A DNA stretch of 64,000 nucleotides from Candidatus Latescibacterota bacterium (lineage in GTDB: Bacteria; Latescibacterota; UBA2968), in the NCBI GenBank assembly GCA_965222605.1, contig OZ244960.1, positions 5,824,001-5,888,000 of the forward strand, read 5' to 3'. The notes beneath the pieces were generated by a model, which was not told where the DNA came from, did no database searches, and saw nothing but the letters and a program-made list of their open reading frames with translations. Every line of letters starts with the position of its first letter. Positions within the stretch are counted from its first letter, which is position 1. Below, one piece after another: positions 14,292 to 24,546 of this stretch. The position numbers and the translations under genes were made by a program.

Positions 14292-17200
14292 ATGCTCAAA
14301 TCACTTGACCGCATGGGTACCTGGCGGACTTATTCTCTGGATAGCGGCCTTGCCGGGCTGCGCGTTGAACATATCGCCGAGGACAACGAGGGGTGTATCT
14401 GGTTCGCCACCTGGGACAACGGTGTTAGTCGCTTCGACGGGGACGAGTTCCGGAATTTTACCAAACAGGACGGCCTTGTTAATGATCATATTTATTTTGT
14501 TTCACAAGACAGTCAGAATCGATTGTGGTTCGGTACAGAAAAAGGCGTCTGCTGGTACGACGGGGTGGGTTTCCATTATTTGAAGGGCGATGGGATCGCA
14601 GGCCGATCCGTGCAATCTATCTACGAAGATCGTCAGAGGCGTATATGGTTCGGTGGCACGAGTACCCTGGGGTATTACGATGGTACTGTGTTTCACGACA
14701 TGATTCCGCTCTACCTCCAGCACTACGAGCAGCCTCCTTCTCATCAGTGGGCCATGTGTTGGGGTATTACTCAGGATCCGCAAGGACACCTGTGGTTTGG
14801 CTTTGACCGCCTCATCCGCTTTGATGGTGAATTCTTCCACCGCTATGAAGAGAAAGACGGTTTTCCCTACGAAGGGACCGCCTATGTCGTGGGCCAGGAC
14901 CATACCGGCAAGGTGTGGATTGGTCGGTTCGGAAATCGAGATGAACTCTGGTGCTATGCCGATGGTGCCTTCCAATCTGTTCAGGTAAATTTGGGAGGCT
15001 GGCTACGCAAAATTCAGTGTGACCGTGAAGGGCGAATGTGGTTCTGCACCTCGGAAGGGGTATTGTATCAGGACAGTGACGGATTCAGCAGGTTTCCCCT
15101 TGCCGATGGCTTGTCCCATCCCGCAGTCAAAGCCGTGTTTCAGGATCGCGATCATCAGTATTGGTTCGCCACCTGGAGCGGCGTTGGACTTTACGATGCT
15201 CATAGTATCAGCGTTTTTGACCTCGGTAAGGCTTTTCCCAAAGACAAAGAGCCGAGCGAAATCTCGCAGATCGTACAAGATCGGCAAGGTGATATATGGA
15301 TCGGGTGTGTGTCACCCCTTCTTACTGACCTGCCCCAAAGCGTCGCCCGCTTTGATGGCGAGCACTTTACATTTGTAGGCTCCGAGCAAGGCTTTGATAT
15401 CAACAACTGTTTCTCTATGTACGAGGACCACGAGGGGTATCTGTGGTTTGGCGGCCTCAACGGCCTGTTCCGCTACGATGGGCAGGAAATAAAAAAAATA
15501 AAAATAGCTGCGGGTTCAGGCGACAGGAGTATCAGTACAATTACCCAGGACGCGCAAGGTCAATTCCTTTTCGGCTATTGGGGAAAGGGCACCTATAAAA
15601 CTAAAATCGGATTCAAAAAAGAAGAGTTTTCGACCAGCCCATTAGAGATCATTTACCAGCGGGGCGAGGCGTTCCAAACCATTTTTGTGGAGGATGAAAA
15701 GAAAGATATTTTAGACCGCATTGGCACTGTGATTGCCGGGCGCAACAGCGAGATCTATTTTCATTTGGCCTGCCACAATTTCTCAGTTGGCAACAGGGGC
15801 TTCGCTCGCTGGCATCCCGAAGATGGCCTTAAATTTTATGGAATTGAAGATGGTTTGATAGACCCCAAGGTCAACGACCTGCTATTAGACCGCGCAGGCA
15901 ACCTGTGGATTGCCACTTTGAGCGGTCTCGTTCGTTTTGATGGCTACACTTTCCACACATTCACGACTGAAGACGGTCTGCCGAACAACCGCATTCGGTG
16001 TCTATTCGAGGATCGGCAAGGACACCTCTGGCTCGGGACAGAAGGCGGTGTAGTTCACTACGATGGTCAGCTTTTTCAGACCATCAAGTCACCGCATATA
16101 GGATCGGTTTCTCAGATATTCGAAGATCGCGACGGAACGTTCTATTTTGGCACTGCTCTGGGTTCTATAATACGCTATCGCCAGCGGCAAACTCCGCCCC
16201 AGATTCGCCTGATTCAGGTTGTCGCCGATCAGGTCTATGAGAACTTAGACGACATCATCTTGTCCACGGCAGGACAGCAGGTGATTTTCGAATACAAGGG
16301 GATGAGTTTTTCCACACATCCGCGCGACATGCTCTATGTCTATCGCCTGAAGGGATACGACTCCGACTGGCGTCCAGCGACCCGAAAGATGCGGGCCTTT
16401 TACCGGGGCTTGCCGCCGGGAGACTACACCTTTCAGGTCAGGTCTATAGATCGCGATCTCAATTATTCAGAGATCGCGCAGGTAAGACTCTCGATAACGG
16501 CGGACCCGCGTATCGAAGCATTTACGGACATAATCAACCGTCGAGGAAGCCAGAAGTTTATCGGGCATAGCGAGGCTCTGCGCGAGTTTCTAATCAATCT
16601 TGAAAAAATCGCATCTACCAATATAACTGTGCTGATTATGGGCGAGACAGGTGTGGGCAAGGGACTGGCAGCACGGGTGCTACACGCGCTGAGTAACCAT
16701 AGCGATGGGCCTTTTATAGAGGTTAGTTGCGGTGCATTGCCCGAGGCGTTGATCGATAGCGAACTTTTTGGTCACGAGCAAGGGGCTTTTACCAGCGCTA
16801 TTTCCCGCAGACTGGGCAGGGTGGAACTGGCGGAGGGTGGCACGCTCTTTTTGGATGAGATCGGCGATATGGCTGTGGAAACGCAGGTCAAGCTGTTGCG
16901 CTTGCTGGAAGAGGGCACGTTTGAGCGCGTTGGGAGCAGCGAGACGCTGACGACAAAGACGCGGATTGTGGCAGCGACGAATCGCAATCTGGAAGAGATG
17001 GTCAGCACAGATGATTTTCGGGAGGATCTCTATTACCGCCTCAATGCCTTTCCGATGTATTTGCCGCCGCTGCGCGAGCGCAAGGAGGATATACCATACC
17101 TTGCCGAGTTTTTCAAGAACCGCATGGCGACACATTTAGATAAGCAAATCGGCCCTTTGACAGTAGAGGTTATAGAAGTGCTGCAAGCCTACCATTGGCC

Positions 17201-17498
17201 AGGCAATGTGCGAGAACTGGAGCATACGATAAACCGCGCCGTAATCGTGTGTCAGGATTCTCGAATTGACGTTGGGGATATCGGCCTCATAAGCAGTAGC
17301 TCTCCTGTTTTTACAGACCGAGAAATCGTGCCTTTGGCTGAATATGAACGCGATTACATACTCAAAGTGCTCAAAGCGACCAACTATCAGATAAAAGGTG
17401 TTCATGGTGCAGCGGCACTGCTGGGACTACACCCTTCGACGCTGTATGGGAAAATGAGAAAACAGGGTATCAAACGCCCAGGTAAAGATCATATATAA
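14292..17498 (+). CDS. sigma54-dependent enhancer-binding protein with N-terminal two-component-regulator beta-propeller and Y_Y_Y domains
   Basis: Repeated D-x-x-G-x-L-W-x-G/AT blades; YRLKGYD...YRGLPPGDYTFQV; GETGVGKG, GAFTSA, LFLDEIG, WPGNVRELE; Fis-type HTH. Confidence 0.9.
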   Translation: MLKSLDRMGTWRTYSLDSGLAGLRVEHIAEDNEGCIWFATWDNGVSRFDGDEFRNFTKQDGLVNDHIYFVSQDSQNRLWFGTEKGVCWYDGVGFHYLKGDGIAGRSVQSIYEDRQRRIWFGGTSTLGYYDGTVFHDMIPLYLQHYEQPPSHQWAMCWGITQDPQGHLWFGFDRLIRFDGEFFHRYEEKDGFPYEGTAYVVGQDHTGKVWIGRFGNRDELWCYADGAFQSVQVNLGGWLRKIQCDREGRMWFCTSEGVLYQDSDGFSRFPLADGLSHPAVKAVFQDRDHQYWFATWSGVGLYDAHSISVFDLGKAFPKDKEPSEISQIVQDRQGDIWIGCVSPLLTDLPQSVARFDGEHFTFVGSEQGFDINNCFSMYEDHEGYLWFGGLNGLFRYDGQEIKKIKIAAGSGDRSISTITQDAQGQFLFGYWGKGTYKTKIGFKKEEFSTSPLEIIYQRGEAFQTIFVEDEKKDILDRIGTVIAGRNSEIYFHLACHNFSVGNRGFARWHPEDGLKFYGIEDGLIDPKVNDLLLDRAGNLWIATLSGLVRFDGYTFHTFTTEDGLPNNRIRCLFEDRQGHLWLGTEGGVVHYDGQLFQTIKSPHIGSVSQIFEDRDGTFYFGTALGSIIRYRQRQTPPQIRLIQVVADQVYENLDDIILSTAGQQVIFEYKGMSFSTHPRDMLYVYRLKGYDSDWRPATRKMRAFYRGLPPGDYTFQVRSIDRDLNYSEIAQVRLSITADPRIEAFTDIINRRGSQKFIGHSEALREFLINLEKIASTNITVLIMGETGVGKGLAARVLHALSNHSDGPFIEVSCGALPEALIDSELFGHEQGAFTSAISRRLGRVELAEGGTLFLDEIGDMAVETQVKLLRLLEEGTFERVGSSETLTTKTRIVAATNRNLEEMVSTDDFREDLYYRLNAFPMYLPPLRERKEDIPYLAEFFKNRMATHLDKQIGPLTVEVIEVLQAYHWPGNVRELEHTINRAVIVCQDSRIDVGDIGLISSSSPVFTDREIVPLAEYERDYILKVLKATNYQIKGVHGAAALLGLHPSTLYGKMRKQGIKRPGKDHI

Positions 17499-17782: not shown

Positions 17783-18625
17783 ATGAAACATTTTTTGGTA
17801 TTTGTGGTCATTGCAAGTTGCTTGTGGTTATCACATCCGGCGGCGCATGCCGAGTCAGATAGGGCATTTTTGAAGAAGACCATTAAGGAAAACTTGGAGG
17901 GCGCGAGTTCGTCGGAAATCATTTTTGCCAGGTACGGGCGGCGCACCATCACGTTGAAACCCCTCGCGACCAGCCAGTATGAAATGCGCCTGGCACTCTG
18001 GACTTTGATGGGCGAGCCGGTTGAACTTTATGAATGCCTCATGCCGCACTTGGGGAGCCTGATCTTTGGAGCGAACGACGGTTACGCCAATAGAGTTGAA
18101 ATTGTCAGCGTCGGTGATAAAAACGAGACTGACATATCATTCTACGGCGATAGCAAAGTGTACGTCAGCCAGGACGTGTTGGACAAAATCGATTACGTGG
18201 ACTTTAGCTTTTCGATCGTGACCTATGACCTTTTTGAATTGCCGGACGAGTTCTATTCGAAAGACAATAGCATGCGTTTTGGTACTTTTAAAGCGTATAT
18301 CCATTTGAAGAACCCTGGTGTTTTGGCTTCACCCGGCAAATGGGGCTGGGACACGCCAGGAAGTCCTGAATGGGAAAAATTTCTGTCGAAGTATCAATTT
18401 CCTTTGGATGAAGGTAAATACAAGTTGCCGGAAGACCATTACATGGACGAAAAGCAGGCTAAGGAGGCATTTCGCCGCATGCGCTGGCGTTACCACAAAA
18501 AACAGGACTTATTCGTTAAAAACTGGTTCGATATTCATCATTTGCGCGTGAATCCGGACCGTATCCTGGACCTCATCCGCAAACACAGTCCTGAAGCCTA
18601 CGCCGAGATCATGGAAAAAGAATAA
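17783..18625 (+). CDS. secreted hypothetical protein
   Basis: Signal peptide MKHFLVFVVIASCLWLSHPAAHA; RBS; no recognised domain. Confidence 0.7.
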   Translation: MKHFLVFVVIASCLWLSHPAAHAESDRAFLKKTIKENLEGASSSEIIFARYGRRTITLKPLATSQYEMRLALWTLMGEPVELYECLMPHLGSLIFGANDGYANRVEIVSVGDKNETDISFYGDSKVYVSQDVLDKIDYVDFSFSIVTYDLFELPDEFYSKDNSMRFGTFKAYIHLKNPGVLASPGKWGWDTPGSPEWEKFLSKYQFPLDEGKYKLPEDHYMDEKQAKEAFRRMRWRYHKKQDLFVKNWFDIHHLRVNPDRILDLIRKHSPEAYAEIMEKE

Positions 18626-18811
18626 AGCAAGTGAGGTGGAATATGAAACGTTTTTGGTTGTGCTTGAGGTGGATTGATGATTTGCATTTTTCTACCTGGC
18701 TTGTGCAACAGAAAGGCGGTTTACTTATGAGAGGTCAAAGCATAAGTAAAGCAAGTTATCAGTACAAAATAAGACGTGCCTGTTTTTAAGACTACAAGAA
18801 AGGGGTTCAGT

Positions 18812-19582
18812 ATGTGGCGCATGTTTGTCGTCTTGGCCGTTGTGGTGAGTTGCTGGACGGTGTATTCTGTGTATTCCGAACCGAGTTTTCCAATGCCTGA
18901 GATGGTGATGATTCCGTCGGGCAGTTTTCAGATGGGCTGTGTGTCGGGTAGGCGCTGCTCGGACGCTGAGAAACCTGTGCATGAAGTGATGATAGACTCG
19001 TTTGCCCTGTCGAAGTATGAGGTGACCTTTGAGGAGTATGATGCATTCACCGATGCGACGGGACGCGAGCGGGCAGACGATGAAGGTTGGGGGCGTGGTC
19101 GGCGTCCGGTGATCAATGTTTCGTGGTTTGATGCGATGGCCTACACGCAGTGGCTGTCGTCACAGACGGGCAAGACCTATCGTTTGCCGAGCGAGGCGGA
19201 GTGGGAGTATGCAGCGCGCGCGGGAACTGAGACGATGTTTAGCTGGGGGAATGATTCTGGTTACAACCGCGCCAATTGCAATGGCTGTGGCAGTCGGTGG
19301 GATAAAAAACAGACGGCACCAGTGGGATCATTCGAGGCCAATGGCTGGGGCCTTTACGACATGCACGGTAATGTATGGGAGTGGGTACGAGATTGTCGGA
19401 ACGAGAGTTATAGGGGCGCACCGACAGATGGTTCTGCATGGATTGGAATTTGCTCTGAGCGCGTGTTGCGTGGTGGTTCGTGGTACTTCAGCCCGTGGGT
19501 CTTGCGGTCGGCGTATCGCGACTGGTACCCCTCCGGCTATCGGGACGACGTCATCGGTTTTCGAGTTGCCCGGTCTTTTTAG
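18812..19582 (+). CDS. secreted FGE-sulfatase/SUMF1 (C-type lectin fold) protein, DGR-target-like
   Basis: PEMVMIPSGSFQMG, YEVTF, RPVINVSW, YRLPSEAEWEYAARAG, GLYDMHGNVWEW, RGGSW...IGFRVAR. Confidence 0.9.
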   Translation: MWRMFVVLAVVVSCWTVYSVYSEPSFPMPEMVMIPSGSFQMGCVSGRRCSDAEKPVHEVMIDSFALSKYEVTFEEYDAFTDATGRERADDEGWGRGRRPVINVSWFDAMAYTQWLSSQTGKTYRLPSEAEWEYAARAGTETMFSWGNDSGYNRANCNGCGSRWDKKQTAPVGSFEANGWGLYDMHGNVWEWVRDCRNESYRGAPTDGSAWIGICSERVLRGGSWYFSPWVLRSAYRDWYPSGYRDDVIGFRVARSF

Positions 19583-19650
19583 CTCCTGATTCTTTACATC
19601 TTTACTTCATTTGTGGGGCTGGGGACTGGCGGGGGTTTTACGATTTTTTT
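19472..19650 (+). repeat. DGR-type variable repeat VR1 plus conserved 3' tail
   Basis: GGTGGTTCGTGG...TCGGTTTTCGAGTTGCCCGGTCTTTTTAG-CTCCTGATTCTTTACATCTTTAC, shared with 20332 and 20911. Confidence 0.75.
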
Positions 19651-19705
19651 AGCGACCACTATGATTGCACTTGAGTCGGTGAACAAGTATCTAAAGGAGG
19701 CATCT

Positions 19706-20442
19706 ATGTGGAACCATATTATGTTGACCATTTGTTCGGTGTTTGTGTTGACAGGTCCGGCATCGACTGGAGACATGACCCGTGACCCGGACAAGGACTT
19801 CAATAAGCTAAGCACCGCAGGAAACCAACGCCCTCAAGGGATCTGGTCGAACGGAACGACCATGTGGGTGGTGGACTCCTATGACCAGAAAATTTATGCC
19901 TACAACCTGAGGACCAAAGCCCGTGACTCGAACAGGATGATAGCTGGGACCGCGAGAATCGTCCTGTGATGAATGTGAGCTGGGAAGATGCCCAGTCTTA
20001 TGTTCGCTGGTTGTCTGGCAAGACGGGAAAACCCTATCGTTTATTGAGTGAATCGGAATGGGAGTATGTGGCGCGTGCAGGTACAGAGACGGCGTATAGC
20101 TGGGGGGATCATATTGGTGAAAACCGTGCCAATTGTGATGGTTGCGGCAGTCAGTGGGATGGTAAGCAGACGGCGCCAGTGGGATCATTCGCAGCCAATG
20201 GCTGGGGCCTTTACGACATGCACGGTAATGTAAGGGAGTGGGTGGAAGACTGCTATCATGGCAGCTATGCGGGCGCACCTACTGATGGAAGTGCACGGGA
20301 GTCTACGGAGGGGTGCTGGCGCGTGTTTCGTGGTGGTTCGTGGGACCTCGAACCGAGGAATTTGCGTTCGGCGTATCGCAGCAGAGGCACCACCGATGTT
20401 CGGTACTACAGCATCGGTTTTCGAGTTGCCCGGTCTTTTTAA
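19706..20442 (+). pseudogene. chimeric/frameshifted secreted protein: signal peptide + one beta-propeller-like repeat joined out of frame to an FGE-sulfatase C-terminal half
   Basis: 19706-19969 MWNHIMLT...GIWSNGTTMWVVDS; from ~19936 another frame reads DDSWDRENRPVMNVSW, matching the FGE domain, and continues as ORF 19966-20442. Confidence 0.7.
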
Positions 20443-20540
20443 CTCCTGATTCTTTACATCTTTACCTCTTTTGTGGGGGAGGGTGGGGGGTGGGGGCTTG
20501 GGGGTTGGTTTTAGACGGGGGGTTTTACGATTTTTTTTCG
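20332..20540 (+). repeat. DGR-type variable repeat VR2 plus conserved 3' tail
   Basis: Same length as VR1 (111 nt to stop) with identical flanks and codon-position-1/2 variation. Confidence 0.75.
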
Positions 20541-20622
20541 AGGGAGGGTTTACGTGGTATGTTCGAAGAATTTTCCCCATTGAACAATCCTGTTATAGGA
20601 TAGGATATCAGGAGTTAGGCTT

Positions 20623-21081
20623 TTGAATGACCAGTCAAATGCTCGGGCACGTCAAACTGGACCGGCATTAGAGGCACATTACCAGTTCATTCTGTGGCTG
20701 GTGCCCACCCTGGAGCGATTTCCCCGCAATCAGTGGGATGCAGAGAAGACAGCTCCAGGGGGCTCGTTTAGTGCCAACAGATGGGGTCTCCACGACATGC
20801 ACGGTAATGTGGCAGAGTGGGTGCAAGATTGTTGGAACTGGGATTACAAGGGGGCACCTGCAGACGGTTCTGCGTGGGAGTCTGGGGACTGTTCTGAGCG
20901 CGTGTTGCGTGGTGGTTCGTGGATAAGCGAACCCTATTCTGATTTCAGTCTTGCTATCTGCTCGGCATGTCGGGCCAGCATACTCCTCAAATCTCGCCAA
21001 AGAAGGATTTTCGGTCATATAGTTGGAGGTGAAATTTTCCGAAGTAGCACCGTCGGTTTTCGAGTTGTCCGGTCTTTTTAG
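20623..21081 (+). pseudogene. avd: Avd (DGR accessory protein) N-terminal fragment fused in frame to FGE-sulfatase C-terminus with VR3
   Basis: TGPALEAHYQFILWLVPTLERFPRNQ resembles the Avd N-terminal helix; switches at CAG (20731-20733) to WDAEKTAPGGSF...GLHDMHGNVAEW...VGFRVVRSF. Confidence 0.7.
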
Positions 21082-21132
21082 ATCCTGATTCTTTATTTTT
21101 TCCCTCTTGTGTGGGGGAGGAAGGAGAAAACC

Positions 21133-22788
21133 ATGCGTAAACGAATCACGACTGTTGTTATCATCGTCACCACGCTTTTGATCTATCCGCTGTCTCAGGT
21201 TCCTGGGAGTAGTCACGATACATGTGATACGCCGCCTAACAGGGCCCCTATGGCGAAGGGCACCATTGATCCTGTGACGCTGGGTGTTAATCCTGATACT
21301 ATAGATGTATCGGACAAATTCAAGGATGATGACGGAGATACGCTGACATACAAGGTATTAGTGAGTGCAGACGCCATTGTAAAGGCGCATATGGATAGCA
21401 GTAAAGTGATAATCGGTCGGGACAGTGTGTTCCGTGCGACAATTACCGTGGTGGCTACAGACCCAGACAGTTTGAAGGCAACGCAGACGATAGCAGTGAA
21501 GGTGAATCAAGCTCCTTTGGCGGTGGACTCGATTGCTTCCGTGATGCTGGGTGTTGATCCCGACACTGTGGATGTATCGGACAAATTTAGCGATGCGGAC
21601 GGAGATACACTGACATACAAGGCGACGGTGAGTGATACAGCTATTGCAACGGTGAGTATGGATGATGGCAAGGTGACCATCAAGCCTGGGACGAAGGAGG
21701 GCAATACGATGGTGACGGTGACAGCGGAAGATCGGTGGGGATTGCAAGCAAAACAATACATTGCTGTGGTACAAGTGGATCCGATAATCAAAGTCATTGA
21801 ACACATAATCATTGTGTTTGTAGTAACTGGAATTGGAGCTTTGCTTTTAAAATTCGCCTTTAAATTTAATTTTAACTTTGATACTCGTATAGGTGAAAAA
21901 GGTAAGGTTCAGGAAAATAAAGATGCGCTTAGGAGGCTCCAGTATATCGTCGGAGTTCTGGGTATCGGACTGCCGCTTCTCCTGCTCATTGCATGTCTGT
22001 ACGATTACGGGTCTAATACTATGATGGTAGAAGATTTCAGTAAGTGTGTCAAAAATTCAATCAGTGCGTATTACGATAGCGCGAGTCGAGACGTATTCGT
22101 TGGGATTCTATGCGTAATCGGTGCATTTCTGTTTGCCTATAAAGGCTATGACACTCGGGATGACCAGGCGAGCCATCTCGCGGGATTGTCGGCGTTCGGA
22201 GTTGCACTCTTCCCCGCGACAAGCAACAACAGAGCGGTAGAGGCGATGCATTACTTGTCTGCCATATTGCTCTTTTTGACGCTGGCCTATATTTCGCGGT
22301 ATCGTTTTACAAAATCGAAATGTGAGTCTATACGACCAGGAACGCTCAAGGCGAAACGGAACCAGGTGTATAATTGGTGTGCTTATATGATGATATTTGG
22401 CCTGCTTGCTATCGGTGCATTTAAGTGCTTGAAATTGCCCGCGATGAACGACTACAAGATGATGTCCGCCGCCGTGCTACTTTTGGTACTGACCTATTTT
22501 TTAATAAATGCCTATTTTTCATGGCATTCTACAGAAAAGGCTAAACAGAATAAGAAAAGCGCACATGTGATAACATTTGGCCTCTTCGCTATTGGAGTTG
22601 GGGTTTGGACACAATATTATCTGACTTCGTTTCCCTTTATGTTTGTGACCGAAACCGTGCTGTTTTTAGCGTTTGGCATTTCGTGGTTGGTCAAGAGTGA
22701 CACATTGATATTATTACGCGATAAAGATGAAAATGATGTCGATGATGATCAAAATGGTGCCGATGACGATGAAAATGATAGTGCGTAG
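21133..22788 (+). CDS. secreted/membrane protein: two Ig/cadherin-like repeats + multi-TM C-terminal domain (DUF998-like)
   Basis: NRAP/NQAP...DVSDKF.D.DGDTLTY...TVTA.D repeats; SISAYY, FVGILCVIGAFLFAYKGY, AFGISWLVK. Confidence 0.7.
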   Translation: MRKRITTVVIIVTTLLIYPLSQVPGSSHDTCDTPPNRAPMAKGTIDPVTLGVNPDTIDVSDKFKDDDGDTLTYKVLVSADAIVKAHMDSSKVIIGRDSVFRATITVVATDPDSLKATQTIAVKVNQAPLAVDSIASVMLGVDPDTVDVSDKFSDADGDTLTYKATVSDTAIATVSMDDGKVTIKPGTKEGNTMVTVTAEDRWGLQAKQYIAVVQVDPIIKVIEHIIIVFVVTGIGALLLKFAFKFNFNFDTRIGEKGKVQENKDALRRLQYIVGVLGIGLPLLLLIACLYDYGSNTMMVEDFSKCVKNSISAYYDSASRDVFVGILCVIGAFLFAYKGYDTRDDQASHLAGLSAFGVALFPATSNNRAVEAMHYLSAILLFLTLAYISRYRFTKSKCESIRPGTLKAKRNQVYNWCAYMMIFGLLAIGAFKCLKLPAMNDYKMMSAAVLLLVLTYFLINAYFSWHSTEKAKQNKKSAHVITFGLFAIGVGVWTQYYLTSFPFMFVTETVLFLAFGISWLVKSDTLILLRDKDENDVDDDQNGADDDENDSA

Positions 22789-23425
22789 GAGTAATTGTGC
22801 AGAAACCGAGCCTGATAGAATGTCTTGCCATTAAACGAAAGAGAAAAATGTAGTTAGAGTTTCGGGATAGCACTCATCATCAAGAACCCAAAATCTCCAA
22901 TGTCTTTTTTCGCTGGCGAATACAGGTTTGTCCTCTAAGCACAGCCACCAATTCAAATAATCCCGGCCCAAACCCAACGCCGCAAAGTGCAAGGCGCGTT
23001 AATGCGTTTGGAACCCAACAGGTCGGGTTCACCAGCCAATGTGTACGTGTGGCGTCGCACGCAACGATAGTAGGCGAAAATTGATAAAAGAAGAGACAGC
23101 ATGCGAAGAGTGATCACAAGTATTTTTGTTCTATTTTTACTGGGATTCTCCACAGTTGCATTCGCCCAACTGCCACCGGAGGTCATGGTAGATAAACATC
23201 TGATGCAGGCAGAACAGCTACTTGAGAAAAAAGACTATATAGTTGCGTTCAACATGATGGACAAAATCATCGCGCTGCAAAAAGAGCACAGTCTCACATT
23301 GCCAGACGAGTTCCACTTTAAGTATACACAGACGTGATGTGTGACTTTAAATAGCGAAAAAGAGGTTCCTCGGCTATCTTGAATTGTTCACTAAACAAGA
23401 AGCCATTCAACGAAAGGAACCTCCA

Positions 23426-24390
23426 ATGTATAATTTAGACCTTTTTGTCATTGCAATCTACTGTTTTATTGAAGACGAACTTTATTCGGCTTTCTGTAAG
23501 GTACATGGCAAGCCCCGTCAAGCAGGCTTTGAGCCCGGTCTAAGTGATGCCGAATGTCTCACCATAGAAATCGTGGGTCACTTTCTGGGATATTCAAGCC
23601 AGAAAAAACTTTATGAGCAGATGAAAGAACACTTCATAGATTGGTTTCCCACTTTGAAAGACCGTCCTGCCTTTGTGCGTCAATGTGCCAATTTGTGGGT
23701 TGTCAAGATGTGGATGCAACAGCGGATTGTTGCCAGCTTGGAAGGGCATCAGGCATCCTGCCAGATCATAGATACGCTACCCTTACCGATCTGTAAACTG
23801 GCAAGGCGACATTATCGCAAGATATTTACAAGAGAGCCAGTCTTTGAGTTCCCACCCCCTTCAAAAGGCTTCTGTGCTGCCAAAAGCGAAGCGTATTTTG
23901 GTTTTAAGGGTGGCCTGAGGATCACGGATTATGGCCTTATTGTCCACGCGCCGATCTTGAAAGCGTATGGACACGACAAGAACTGCCGAGAGGCACTCCT
24001 TGATGGCACAATGGGAGATACAACCGTCTTGGCCGATGCGGCCTTTATGGATTTGGACTGGCAAAAAAGGTGCTTTGATACCTACCGAATACGCATAAAG
24101 ACACCCTTAAAGTCCAATATGAAAGACAATCCTGAACGCACCCCTTTCATTTTGCCCAAAGCGAAGAAAGCCACAAGGCGATTAGTCGGAGCGGTGTACA
24201 ACTTCGCAGAAGTTCAACCGTTTATGCACAATTGACAGAACGCTTGCATATTGCCCGCATGAAAGTGCGAGATGCATGGCATTTATTGAACTTGTGGCAT
24301 ACCAAAATCTTAACCCATACTATGTGTGTCTTTCTCAATATCATCAATTATCGAGACCCTCTTGATTTTGATGGCCTCGTGCAATTTTGA
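23426..24390 (+). pseudogene. IS982 DDE transposase, frameshifted
   Basis: LSDAECLTI, IIDTLPLPIC, YFGFK, LADAAF; frame broken at 24188-24216; C-terminus TVYAQLTER...TKILTHT in another frame. Confidence 0.85.
24188..24216 (+). repeat. hairpin mini-element copy
   Basis: GGAGCGGTGTACAACT-TC-GCA-GA-AGTTCA; same family as 35613, 46650, 53411, 53462. Confidence 0.7.
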
Positions 24391-24546
24391 AGTCACACAT
24401 CGCGTTATACACAGATTGCCTTTTCAACAGGCTCGATGCAGACCGCTGTGAACGGCAGGGAGCAGGAATGATGACAGACGAGACGGCGGAGCTTGGCCCG
24501 TAGTGCCTTTATATGGGAACCGTAACTATCTGGGCTAAGATGTGCG

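Follow-up and report, generated by a model that had tools for sequence, protein, structure and literature searches.

Remnants of a very probably extinct diversity-generating retroelement and its frozen variable repeats in a Candidatus Latescibacterota genome

The stretch of DNA analysed here (the window, 64,000 nucleotides) comes from a Candidatus Latescibacterota bacterium (assembly GCA_965222605.1, contig OZ244960.1, positions 5,824,001 to 5,888,000). It contains three genes or gene remnants of the FGE-sulfatase family, which has a C-type-lectin (CLec) fold. Very probably, their 3' ends are the variable repeats (VRs) on which a diversity-generating retroelement (DGR) once acted; the element would since have gone extinct here, and its decapitated remains and the frozen VRs would be what is left. 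The genome (G000) is a single contig of 6.34 Mb from a metagenome-type assembly, with an estimated completeness of 98.7% and an estimated contamination of 5.4%. Coordinates without a genome label are window positions; positions in kb refer to the G000 contig.

The genes, repeats and tails of the locus all lie on the plus strand. Gene 1 (18812..19582) encodes an exported protein of the FGE-sulfatase/CLec type, a former DGR target, and is the only intact one of the three; genes 2 and 3 are truncated remnants. Its ATG start is at 18812, and the open frame reaches upstream to a GTG at 18776. The N-terminus is hydrophobic and of the export type, and residues 40-266 match positions 2-255 of PF03781, which is the whole model. 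The PF03781 scores of genes 1, 2, and 3 are 206, 132.5, and 75.2 bits (E = 1e-60, 3e-38, and 8e-21), all above the gathering cut-off of 23.3. Gene 2 (19936..20442) lacks its 5' part, as judged by Pfam and blastn; its open reading frame (ORF; 19966-20442, 158 aa) covers model positions 93-255 only. Gene 3 is a chimeric ORF (20623-21081), in which codons 1-37 of the DGR accessory protein Avd (20623..20733) continue in frame into the final ~115 codons of an FGE gene (20734..21081). The FGE part matches Pfam positions 154-230 at residues 32-108, and blastn aligns 20726-20933 with the other paralogues. Between genes 1 and 2, a 118-aa ORF (19613..19969) corresponds to the N-terminal piece of a 410-aa repeat protein (paralogue L002 2560-3792); 19683-19927 is 83% identical to G000 1441636-1441877 by blastn, and the deletion junction lies at ~19927-19935.

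The three 3' ends have a common layout: CGTGGTGGTTCGTGG, a variable stretch, GGTTTTCGAGTTG(C/T)CCGGTCTTTTTA(G/A), and then a conserved tail after the stop codon. The 3' motif TCGGTTTTCGAGTTG(C/T)CCGGTCTTTTTA(G/A) occurs in 3/3 ends. The 12-mer GGTGGTTCGTGG is exact at 19472, 20332, and 20911, and its six copies in the genome are all in VR-type ends. A sequence-only reading of the window, which preceded this analysis, had pointed to the shared 5' and 3' motifs and the post-stop tail, and these were present at all three ends. VR1 (CGTGGTGGTTC ... GGTTTTCGAGTT; 19469..19567) and VR2 (20329..20427) are both 99 nt, the equal length that the same reading had noted. They differ at 26 positions of the 72-nt interior, with 14, 7, and 5 differences at codon positions 1, 2, and 3. 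The earlier hand count, which placed 21 of 26 differences at the first two codon positions, is thus exact; the interior has 24 codons rather than the 23 given there. VR3 (20908..21066) has the same flanks, and is 60 nt longer than the other VRs through several indels, about three insertions that jointly preserve the frame. It was left out of the equal-length comparisons.

Eight VRs were found in G000, at four loci, and seven of them are equal in length. The five outside the window are at ~1443.5, 1445.8, 2698.5, 6089.2, and 6093.1 kb. The frames of five VR units are intact (gene 1 and the copies at 2698, 1443, 1445, and 6093 kb), and three are broken (gene 2, gene 3, and the split copy at 6089 kb). 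Some of the targets are fused to a protein kinase, and PF03781 matches the paralogues too. The split copy is a kinase-FGE target (L003:5144-7154, G000 6089-6091 kb) that falls into three consecutive ORFs of 327, 188, and 158 aa and adjoins a PP2C phosphatase gene; it is probably a broken copy of the adjacent 644-aa kinase-FGE gene. A further FGE paralogue at 152 kb was rejected as a ninth VR; the family motif is present there and the DGR flanks are missing.

The codon-position pattern of these repeats was compared with that of 113 gap-free codons 5' of the VR in seven paralogues. Upstream, the mean pairwise identity at codon positions 1, 2, and 3 was 0.78, 0.79, and 0.59, the usual third-position bias. 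In the VR interior, the values were 0.49, 0.64, and 0.75. This inverted pattern indicates neither chance nor ordinary divergence. Identity at the third positions of the VRs that are not opposite a template adenine was also higher (0.78, n = 21) than at those upstream (0.59), which fits the former overwriting of all copies by one template.

An intact cassette was found in a genome of the same genus, G016, one of 60 related genomes searched with the G000 reverse transcriptase (RT) fragment described below. Locus L020 of G016 carries two kinase-FGE targets, a third VR upstream, an Avd of 132 aa, an RT of 375 aa with the motif YVDDFALF, and a template repeat (TR) directly downstream of the RT; targets stand on both sides of Avd-RT-TR. 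The translation of this TR, GGSWNNKPRNLRSANRNRNTTENRNNNNGFRVAR, differs at a few residues only from the template GGSW-...-IGFRVA that the sequence-only reading had inferred. Compared with their own TR, the three neighbouring G016 VRs are altered at 17-18 of the 33 adenines, and at 0, 1, and 0 of the 66 other bases. From these data the G016 element looks active, and it was used as a positive control. Downstream of its TR (L020:8105-8130), two perfectly complementary 8-bp arms form an inverted repeat around a GACA loop (GGCAACAC GACA GTGTTGCC).

For the full-length adenine test, the seven equal-length G000 VRs were aligned with the G016 TR, with which they are collinear over 99 columns. Columns that vary among the seven VRs comprise 30/33 of those opposite a TR adenine, vs 19/66 elsewhere (Fisher p = 2e-9). 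Three or more bases occur in 26/33 adenine columns and in 5/66 others, and 23 of the 26 differences between VR1 and VR2 fall in adenine columns. Part of the template of G000 itself survives, and comparison with it gave the same result: mismatches occur in 79/126 adenine cells and in 24/189 other cells (p = 1e-20). The adenine-specific footprint and the DGR origin proposed from the letters of the window are borne out by both templates, as well as by the remains of Avd, RT, and TR in G000. The non-adenine mismatches of the G000 VRs (24/189 cells) exceed those of the active G016 VRs (1/198); such an excess is expected for drift after the death of the element. Homology between TR and VR stops at ...GTTG(C/T)CCG, and the two diverge beyond this point, which resembles an initiation of mutagenic homing (IMH) element.

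The remains of the machinery in G000 are incomplete at every locus. The 6.34-Mb contig has no intact RT: Pfam RVT_1 (PF00078) gave 0 matches at E <= 0.001, and TIGR04416 gave one RT fragment (6092400-6092759, minus strand, model positions 35-157 of 353). A tblastn search with the 375-aa G016 RT matched G000 over residues 63-176 only, with 94% identity; the match ends before YVDD. The informative model for Avd was NCBIfam NF033474 (DivGenRetAVD). It gave three matches (E = 1e-7, 2e-5, and 0.9), all N-terminal, which cover positions 4-44 of 104 at 6092.8 kb, 5-37 at 2698.7 kb, and 4-25 at window 20668-20733; the scores are below the family cut-off because the stubs are truncated. PF05635 (23S_rRNA_IVP) gave no Avd match in G000 at E <= 1, and Pfam bAvd (PF22296) gave weak matches only (E = 0.024 and 0.23). 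The three stubs are 77-85% identical to the G016 Avd by tblastn; the window stub matches residues 8-42 with 77% identity (E = 2e-13). Aligned with the intact G016 Avd, they break off at different places, after about codons 37, 49, and 57. No complete Avd was found in G000, either with the NF033474 profile or by tblastn with the G016 Avd.

The largest remnant is a wrecked cassette ~248 kb downstream of the window (G000 6092230-6092960, minus strand), which was delimited by blastn, tblastn, and block alignment. Relative to the G016 cassette it consists of three blocks: Avd to about codon 57, the RT fragment, and the 3' half of the TR with its flank. The gaps are 331 bp before the RT block and 657 bp before the TR block, and the latter accounts for the loss of the catalytic core of the RT and of the TR's 5' half. 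The TR remnant at ~6092.3 kb retains the 3' 45 nt (AGG AAT ACC ACC GAA AAC CGG AAC AAC AAT AAC GGT ...). A full-length TR was not found in G000, either by blastn with the G016 TR region or by script scans. The genome-wide search for an RT and an AAC-rich TR that the sequence-only reading had proposed thus returned this remnant and the RT fragment, and no intact copy of either. A loose scan for A-rich TRs gave 905 matches to a loose 3' motif, which were chance-like; none had a 5' anchor. At ~6092300-6092330, substitutions in both arms of the inverted repeat corresponding to that of G016 break pairs.

What is demonstrated for the G000 system comprises the remnants, the points at which they break off, the coincidence of variable columns with TR adenines, and the lack of any intact RT or TR on the assembled contig. 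The order of events that led to them can be inferred as follows. In the active phase, an Avd-RT complex would have copied into cDNA a TR that read about GGSW-NN(K/N)PRNLRSANRNRNTTxNRNNNN-GFRVAR. With misincorporation opposite adenines, the cDNA would have replaced the final ~100 nt in several genes of the FGE-sulfatase family (C-type-lectin fold), so that codon positions 1-2 of AAC-type codons were randomised and the remaining positions were homogenised. The window locus was probably once a full cassette, with two targets followed by Avd, RT, TR, and a third target. A deletion that ran from Avd codon 37 to the middle of the downstream target would have removed the Avd C-terminus, the RT, the TR, and the 5' part of that target, leaving the in-frame chimera of gene 3; since targets flank Avd-RT-TR on both sides in G016, a single deletion explains this gene. 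A second deletion would have taken the 5' part of gene 2 and joined the remnant, out of frame, to the first ~105 codons of the repeat protein. The 410-aa paralogue of this protein precedes the target at 1441-1443 kb. Different deletions would have inactivated two more cassettes, at 2698 kb and 6092 kb. As neither an intact RT nor a complete TR remains, the eight VRs would be frozen and subject to ordinary mutation only, and the intact genes presumably still serve as ligand-binding proteins of fixed specificity.

The history of the locus is partly recorded in its surroundings. The window region is a mosaic of old paralogous segments with 68-88% identity by blastn. Paralogues of the flanking genes surround the target and Avd stub at 2698 kb, which indicates that the window and 2698-kb loci duplicate one ancestral cassette. 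Their stubs end differently and the FGE fragment is found in the window only; neither can therefore derive from the other by deletion, and at least two independent deletions are required. The nearest relative of the window locus is in G014, where an RT fragment (residues 227-348, with YVDD) lies a few kb from the orthologue of gene 1 (273 aa, L063, 9473-10294), together with a sigma-54 regulator and a repeat protein. This fragment supports the view, from sequence comparison, that the window locus was formerly a full cassette. Another G014 locus (L062), whose VR resembles VR1, was rejected as a counterpart; it is not syntenic with the window and has 72% identity over the gene only.

The sequence-only reading had left two outcomes side by side, a decapitated DGR or targets diversified in trans. 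The first is upheld by the Avd-FGE deletion scar within the window. The second, in which a DGR active elsewhere in the cell would go on diversifying the window VRs as remote targets, is very improbable. In the survey of Wu et al. (PMC5758913), some targets of other DGRs lie more than 100 kb away from their RT, and the 'degenerate' loci of Thiohalocapsa PB-PSB1 are reported to be served by one complete locus (PMC10907252); moreover, VR1 and VR2 still have their conserved flanks and tails in full. Against these points, the contig holds no intact RT, half a TR, and Avd copies that are all stubs, and the VRs show non-adenine drift. The assembled contigs from two runs of one sample, probably the source sample, weigh weakly in the same direction: VR2 and VR3 are covered by one 3156-nt unitig and VR1 by a 238-nt unitig, with 0 differences, an identity that weakly supports frozen VRs, as contigs drop rare variants. 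Contigs of four runs were affected by heavy cross-mapping from paralogues and other organisms, and hypervariability was neither shown nor excluded by them. The contig joints 19600>20647 and 20733>21121 probably belong to the 2698-kb paralogue, because the 37 letters between 19600 and 20647 match the tail of that paralogue.

It is even less probable that the deletions are an artefact, in which repeated cassettes were collapsed during assembly and the real genome keeps an intact one. The assembly is of the metagenome type, the estimated contamination is 5.4%, and the loci are repetitive. However, paralogues with 68-88% identity are too divergent for collapse, and three different breakpoints occur at three loci. 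The short-read unitigs of the two runs also reproduce 20203-21200, including the Avd-FGE junction, with 0 differences; this check is not independent, the sample being probably the source. The least probable explanation is ordinary paralogue divergence with positive selection on the ligand-binding residues of the lectin fold, the flanks being kept by constraint or gene conversion and no retroelement being involved: RGG(S/A)W...RSA.R...GFRVA is indeed a family motif that also occurs in the 152-kb paralogue without DGR flanks, but this explanation is refuted by the adenine tests and the TR remnant alignment, and it leaves unexplained the match of the variable columns to the adenines of two templates, the higher conservation of synonymous non-adenine sites in the VR than upstream, and the Avd, RT, and TR remnants beside the genes.

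Several points weigh against the extinction of the DGR in G000. A plasmid or phage outside the single-contig assembly could carry the RT and TR, and population-level invariance was judged from contigs rather than raw reads. The TR of the full-length test comes from another species, and all G000 VRs share five fixed non-adenine differences from it; the lost TR of G000 would therefore have differed slightly from that of G016. The 1445-kb copy is changed in 10 of the 19 non-adenine columns that vary, and in 7 of them the change is private to it. This copy, which has also lost the GGSW motif, may have had another template or a longer drift. Finally, folding of the tails as DNA did not predict a stable hairpin of the BPP-1 type downstream of the VRs.

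The tails themselves are conserved over ~40-65 nt 3' of each stop, in the G000 VRs as well as in the active G016 VRs. Those of the window (19583-19640, 20443-20510, and 21082-21120) consist of a pyrimidine run (CTCCTGATTCTTTACATCTTTACCTCTTTT) followed by several G runs, and may be prone to G-quadruplex or other non-B DNA. The VR1 tail (19583..19640) aligns with the others, including those of G016. The VR2 tail continues into a spacer that reaches the Avd start (20443..20622), and this region has aligned counterparts in the tail-to-Avd spacers of G016 and of the G000 loci at 6092 kb and 6089 kb. The VR3 tail (21082..21120) runs straight into the Big_9 gene. Retrohoming in Bordetella phage BPP-1 needs a GC-rich hairpin or cruciform that has a GRNA loop and lies 4-34 bp beyond the VR (PMC3240598). 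As in BPP-1, a conserved element follows each G000 VR, past the end of TR homology. Unlike the BPP-1 element, the G000 tails have no GC-rich 7-10-bp stem with a 4-nt loop. Folding gave no support for a hairpin or cruciform after the VRs: five tails folded as DNA had z values of -0.61 to +0.93, no better than shuffles.

The flanking genes also have paralogues in the genome. Upstream, a plus-strand gene (17783..18625) has no Pfam match; by blastn, 18125-18635 is 88% identical to G000 2697135-2697648, and this paralogue lies upstream of the 2698-kb target. Downstream, a plus-strand gene (21109..22788) encodes an immunoglobulin-domain (Big_9, PF17963) membrane protein; 21504-21772 is 79% identical to G000 2699065-2699333 by blastn, and the paralogue follows the 2698-kb Avd stub. 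At 14292-17498 there is a sigma-54-type regulator with an N-terminal propeller-like region. Its paralogues adjoin the VR-gene loci at 1438-1441 kb (81% identity) and the homologous G014 locus, and the regulator family and the target genes may be linked; more copies are at 441-444 kb and 1281-1284 kb. An insertion-sequence (IS)-like repeat (23332-24405), which contains a 283-aa ORF, has five other copies in G000, with 93% identity. Directly beside it is a 78-codon ORF (23101-23337) similar to the N-terminus of the 1445-kb TPR-FGE target, and this similarity suggests another target gene cut by insertion.

Most features of the G000 system have counterparts in known DGRs. Targets of the FGE/CLec fold, multiple targets per DGR, non-adenine substitutions, and TR-VR indels were all recorded in the survey of Wu et al. 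(PMC5758913). Like other DGRs with FGE/CLec targets, G000 has an FGE-sulfatase fold, a VR at the extreme 3' end, an Avd accessory gene, variation at TR adenines and at codon positions 1-2, and several targets, some of them fused to kinases; unlike them, it has no functional RT, complete TR, or complete Avd. For Thiohalocapsa PB-PSB1, kinase-linked targets, 'degenerate' loci with missing or pseudogenised machinery, and one complete locus for each class are reported (PMC10907252). As at those degenerate loci, VR targets are kept in G000 and key machinery is missing. Duplication and rearrangement of DGR loci in a genome rich in mobile elements is a further likeness, the IS-like repeat at 23332-24405 being the G000 example. 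The difference is that 0/3 G000 cassettes are complete. Degenerate DGR loci have thus already been described, and G000 is an ordinary but clean example, which differs from the known cases only in that no complete locus is left. A preprint has also classed DGRs as active or inactive from population data (10.1101/2020.04.01.020958). A full-text literature search found no title or abstract that pairs 'diversity-generating retroelement' with 'sponge', and survey supplements may list related elements.

The distribution of the element was surveyed across the genus (21 genomes). VR-type ends with the exact VR pattern occur in 11/21 genomes. A search with the complete RT of G016, at a threshold of E <= 1e-8, gave a complete match in G016 only. 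Three genomes have RT fragments that do not overlap (G000, about residues 63-177; G008, 1-114; G014, 227-348), G015 has distant RTs only (28% identity), and the other 16/21 have no RT match at this threshold. VRs in 11 genomes and one full RT indicate that the DGR was lost repeatedly and that the targets were retained. Beyond the genus, full-length RTs with 67-79% identity to the G016 RT were found in records of metagenome-assembled genomes (MAGs) labelled as at least six phylum-level groups; the labels include Latescibacteria/Latescibacterota, Binatia, Dehalococcoidia, Alphaproteobacteria, Gammaproteobacteria groups, Nitrospira/Nitrospirales, and Acidobacteriota. Of 20 such loci scanned, 11 have an adenine-rich TR, just after the RT. 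These TRs are nearly identical to one another and read GGSWNN(K/N)PRNLR(S/A)ANRNRN...NRNNNNGFR. The presence of one DGR lineage across these MAG groups suggests horizontal spread.

These findings leave knowledge of the DGR mechanism unchanged; their bearing is on how such elements are counted and how they come and go. Surveys that begin from the RT miss extinct elements and frozen targets, and such elements may instead be recognised by Avd stubs, conserved VR flanks and tails, the inverted codon-position pattern, and the TR of a relative. Drift at the non-adenine positions of a frozen VR could serve to date its last retrohoming roughly. Orphan VRs are frequent enough in the genus to suggest that targets commonly outlast their DGR, which bears on estimates of the use of hypermutation. 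Tentatively, and with the balance of probability on the other side, the DGR might be regarded as a transient evolvability module, which spreads horizontally among co-resident uncultivated bacteria of many phyla, diversifies exported and kinase-linked lectin-fold receptors, and is then repeatedly deleted, the 'chosen' VRs being kept hard-wired. This possibility is drawn from the 11/21 genomes with VRs, the one full RT, the three non-overlapping RT fragments, and the RT/TR lineage in MAGs labelled as at least six phyla. If it were true, the repeated loss of the DGR in this genus would be selected, not accidental.

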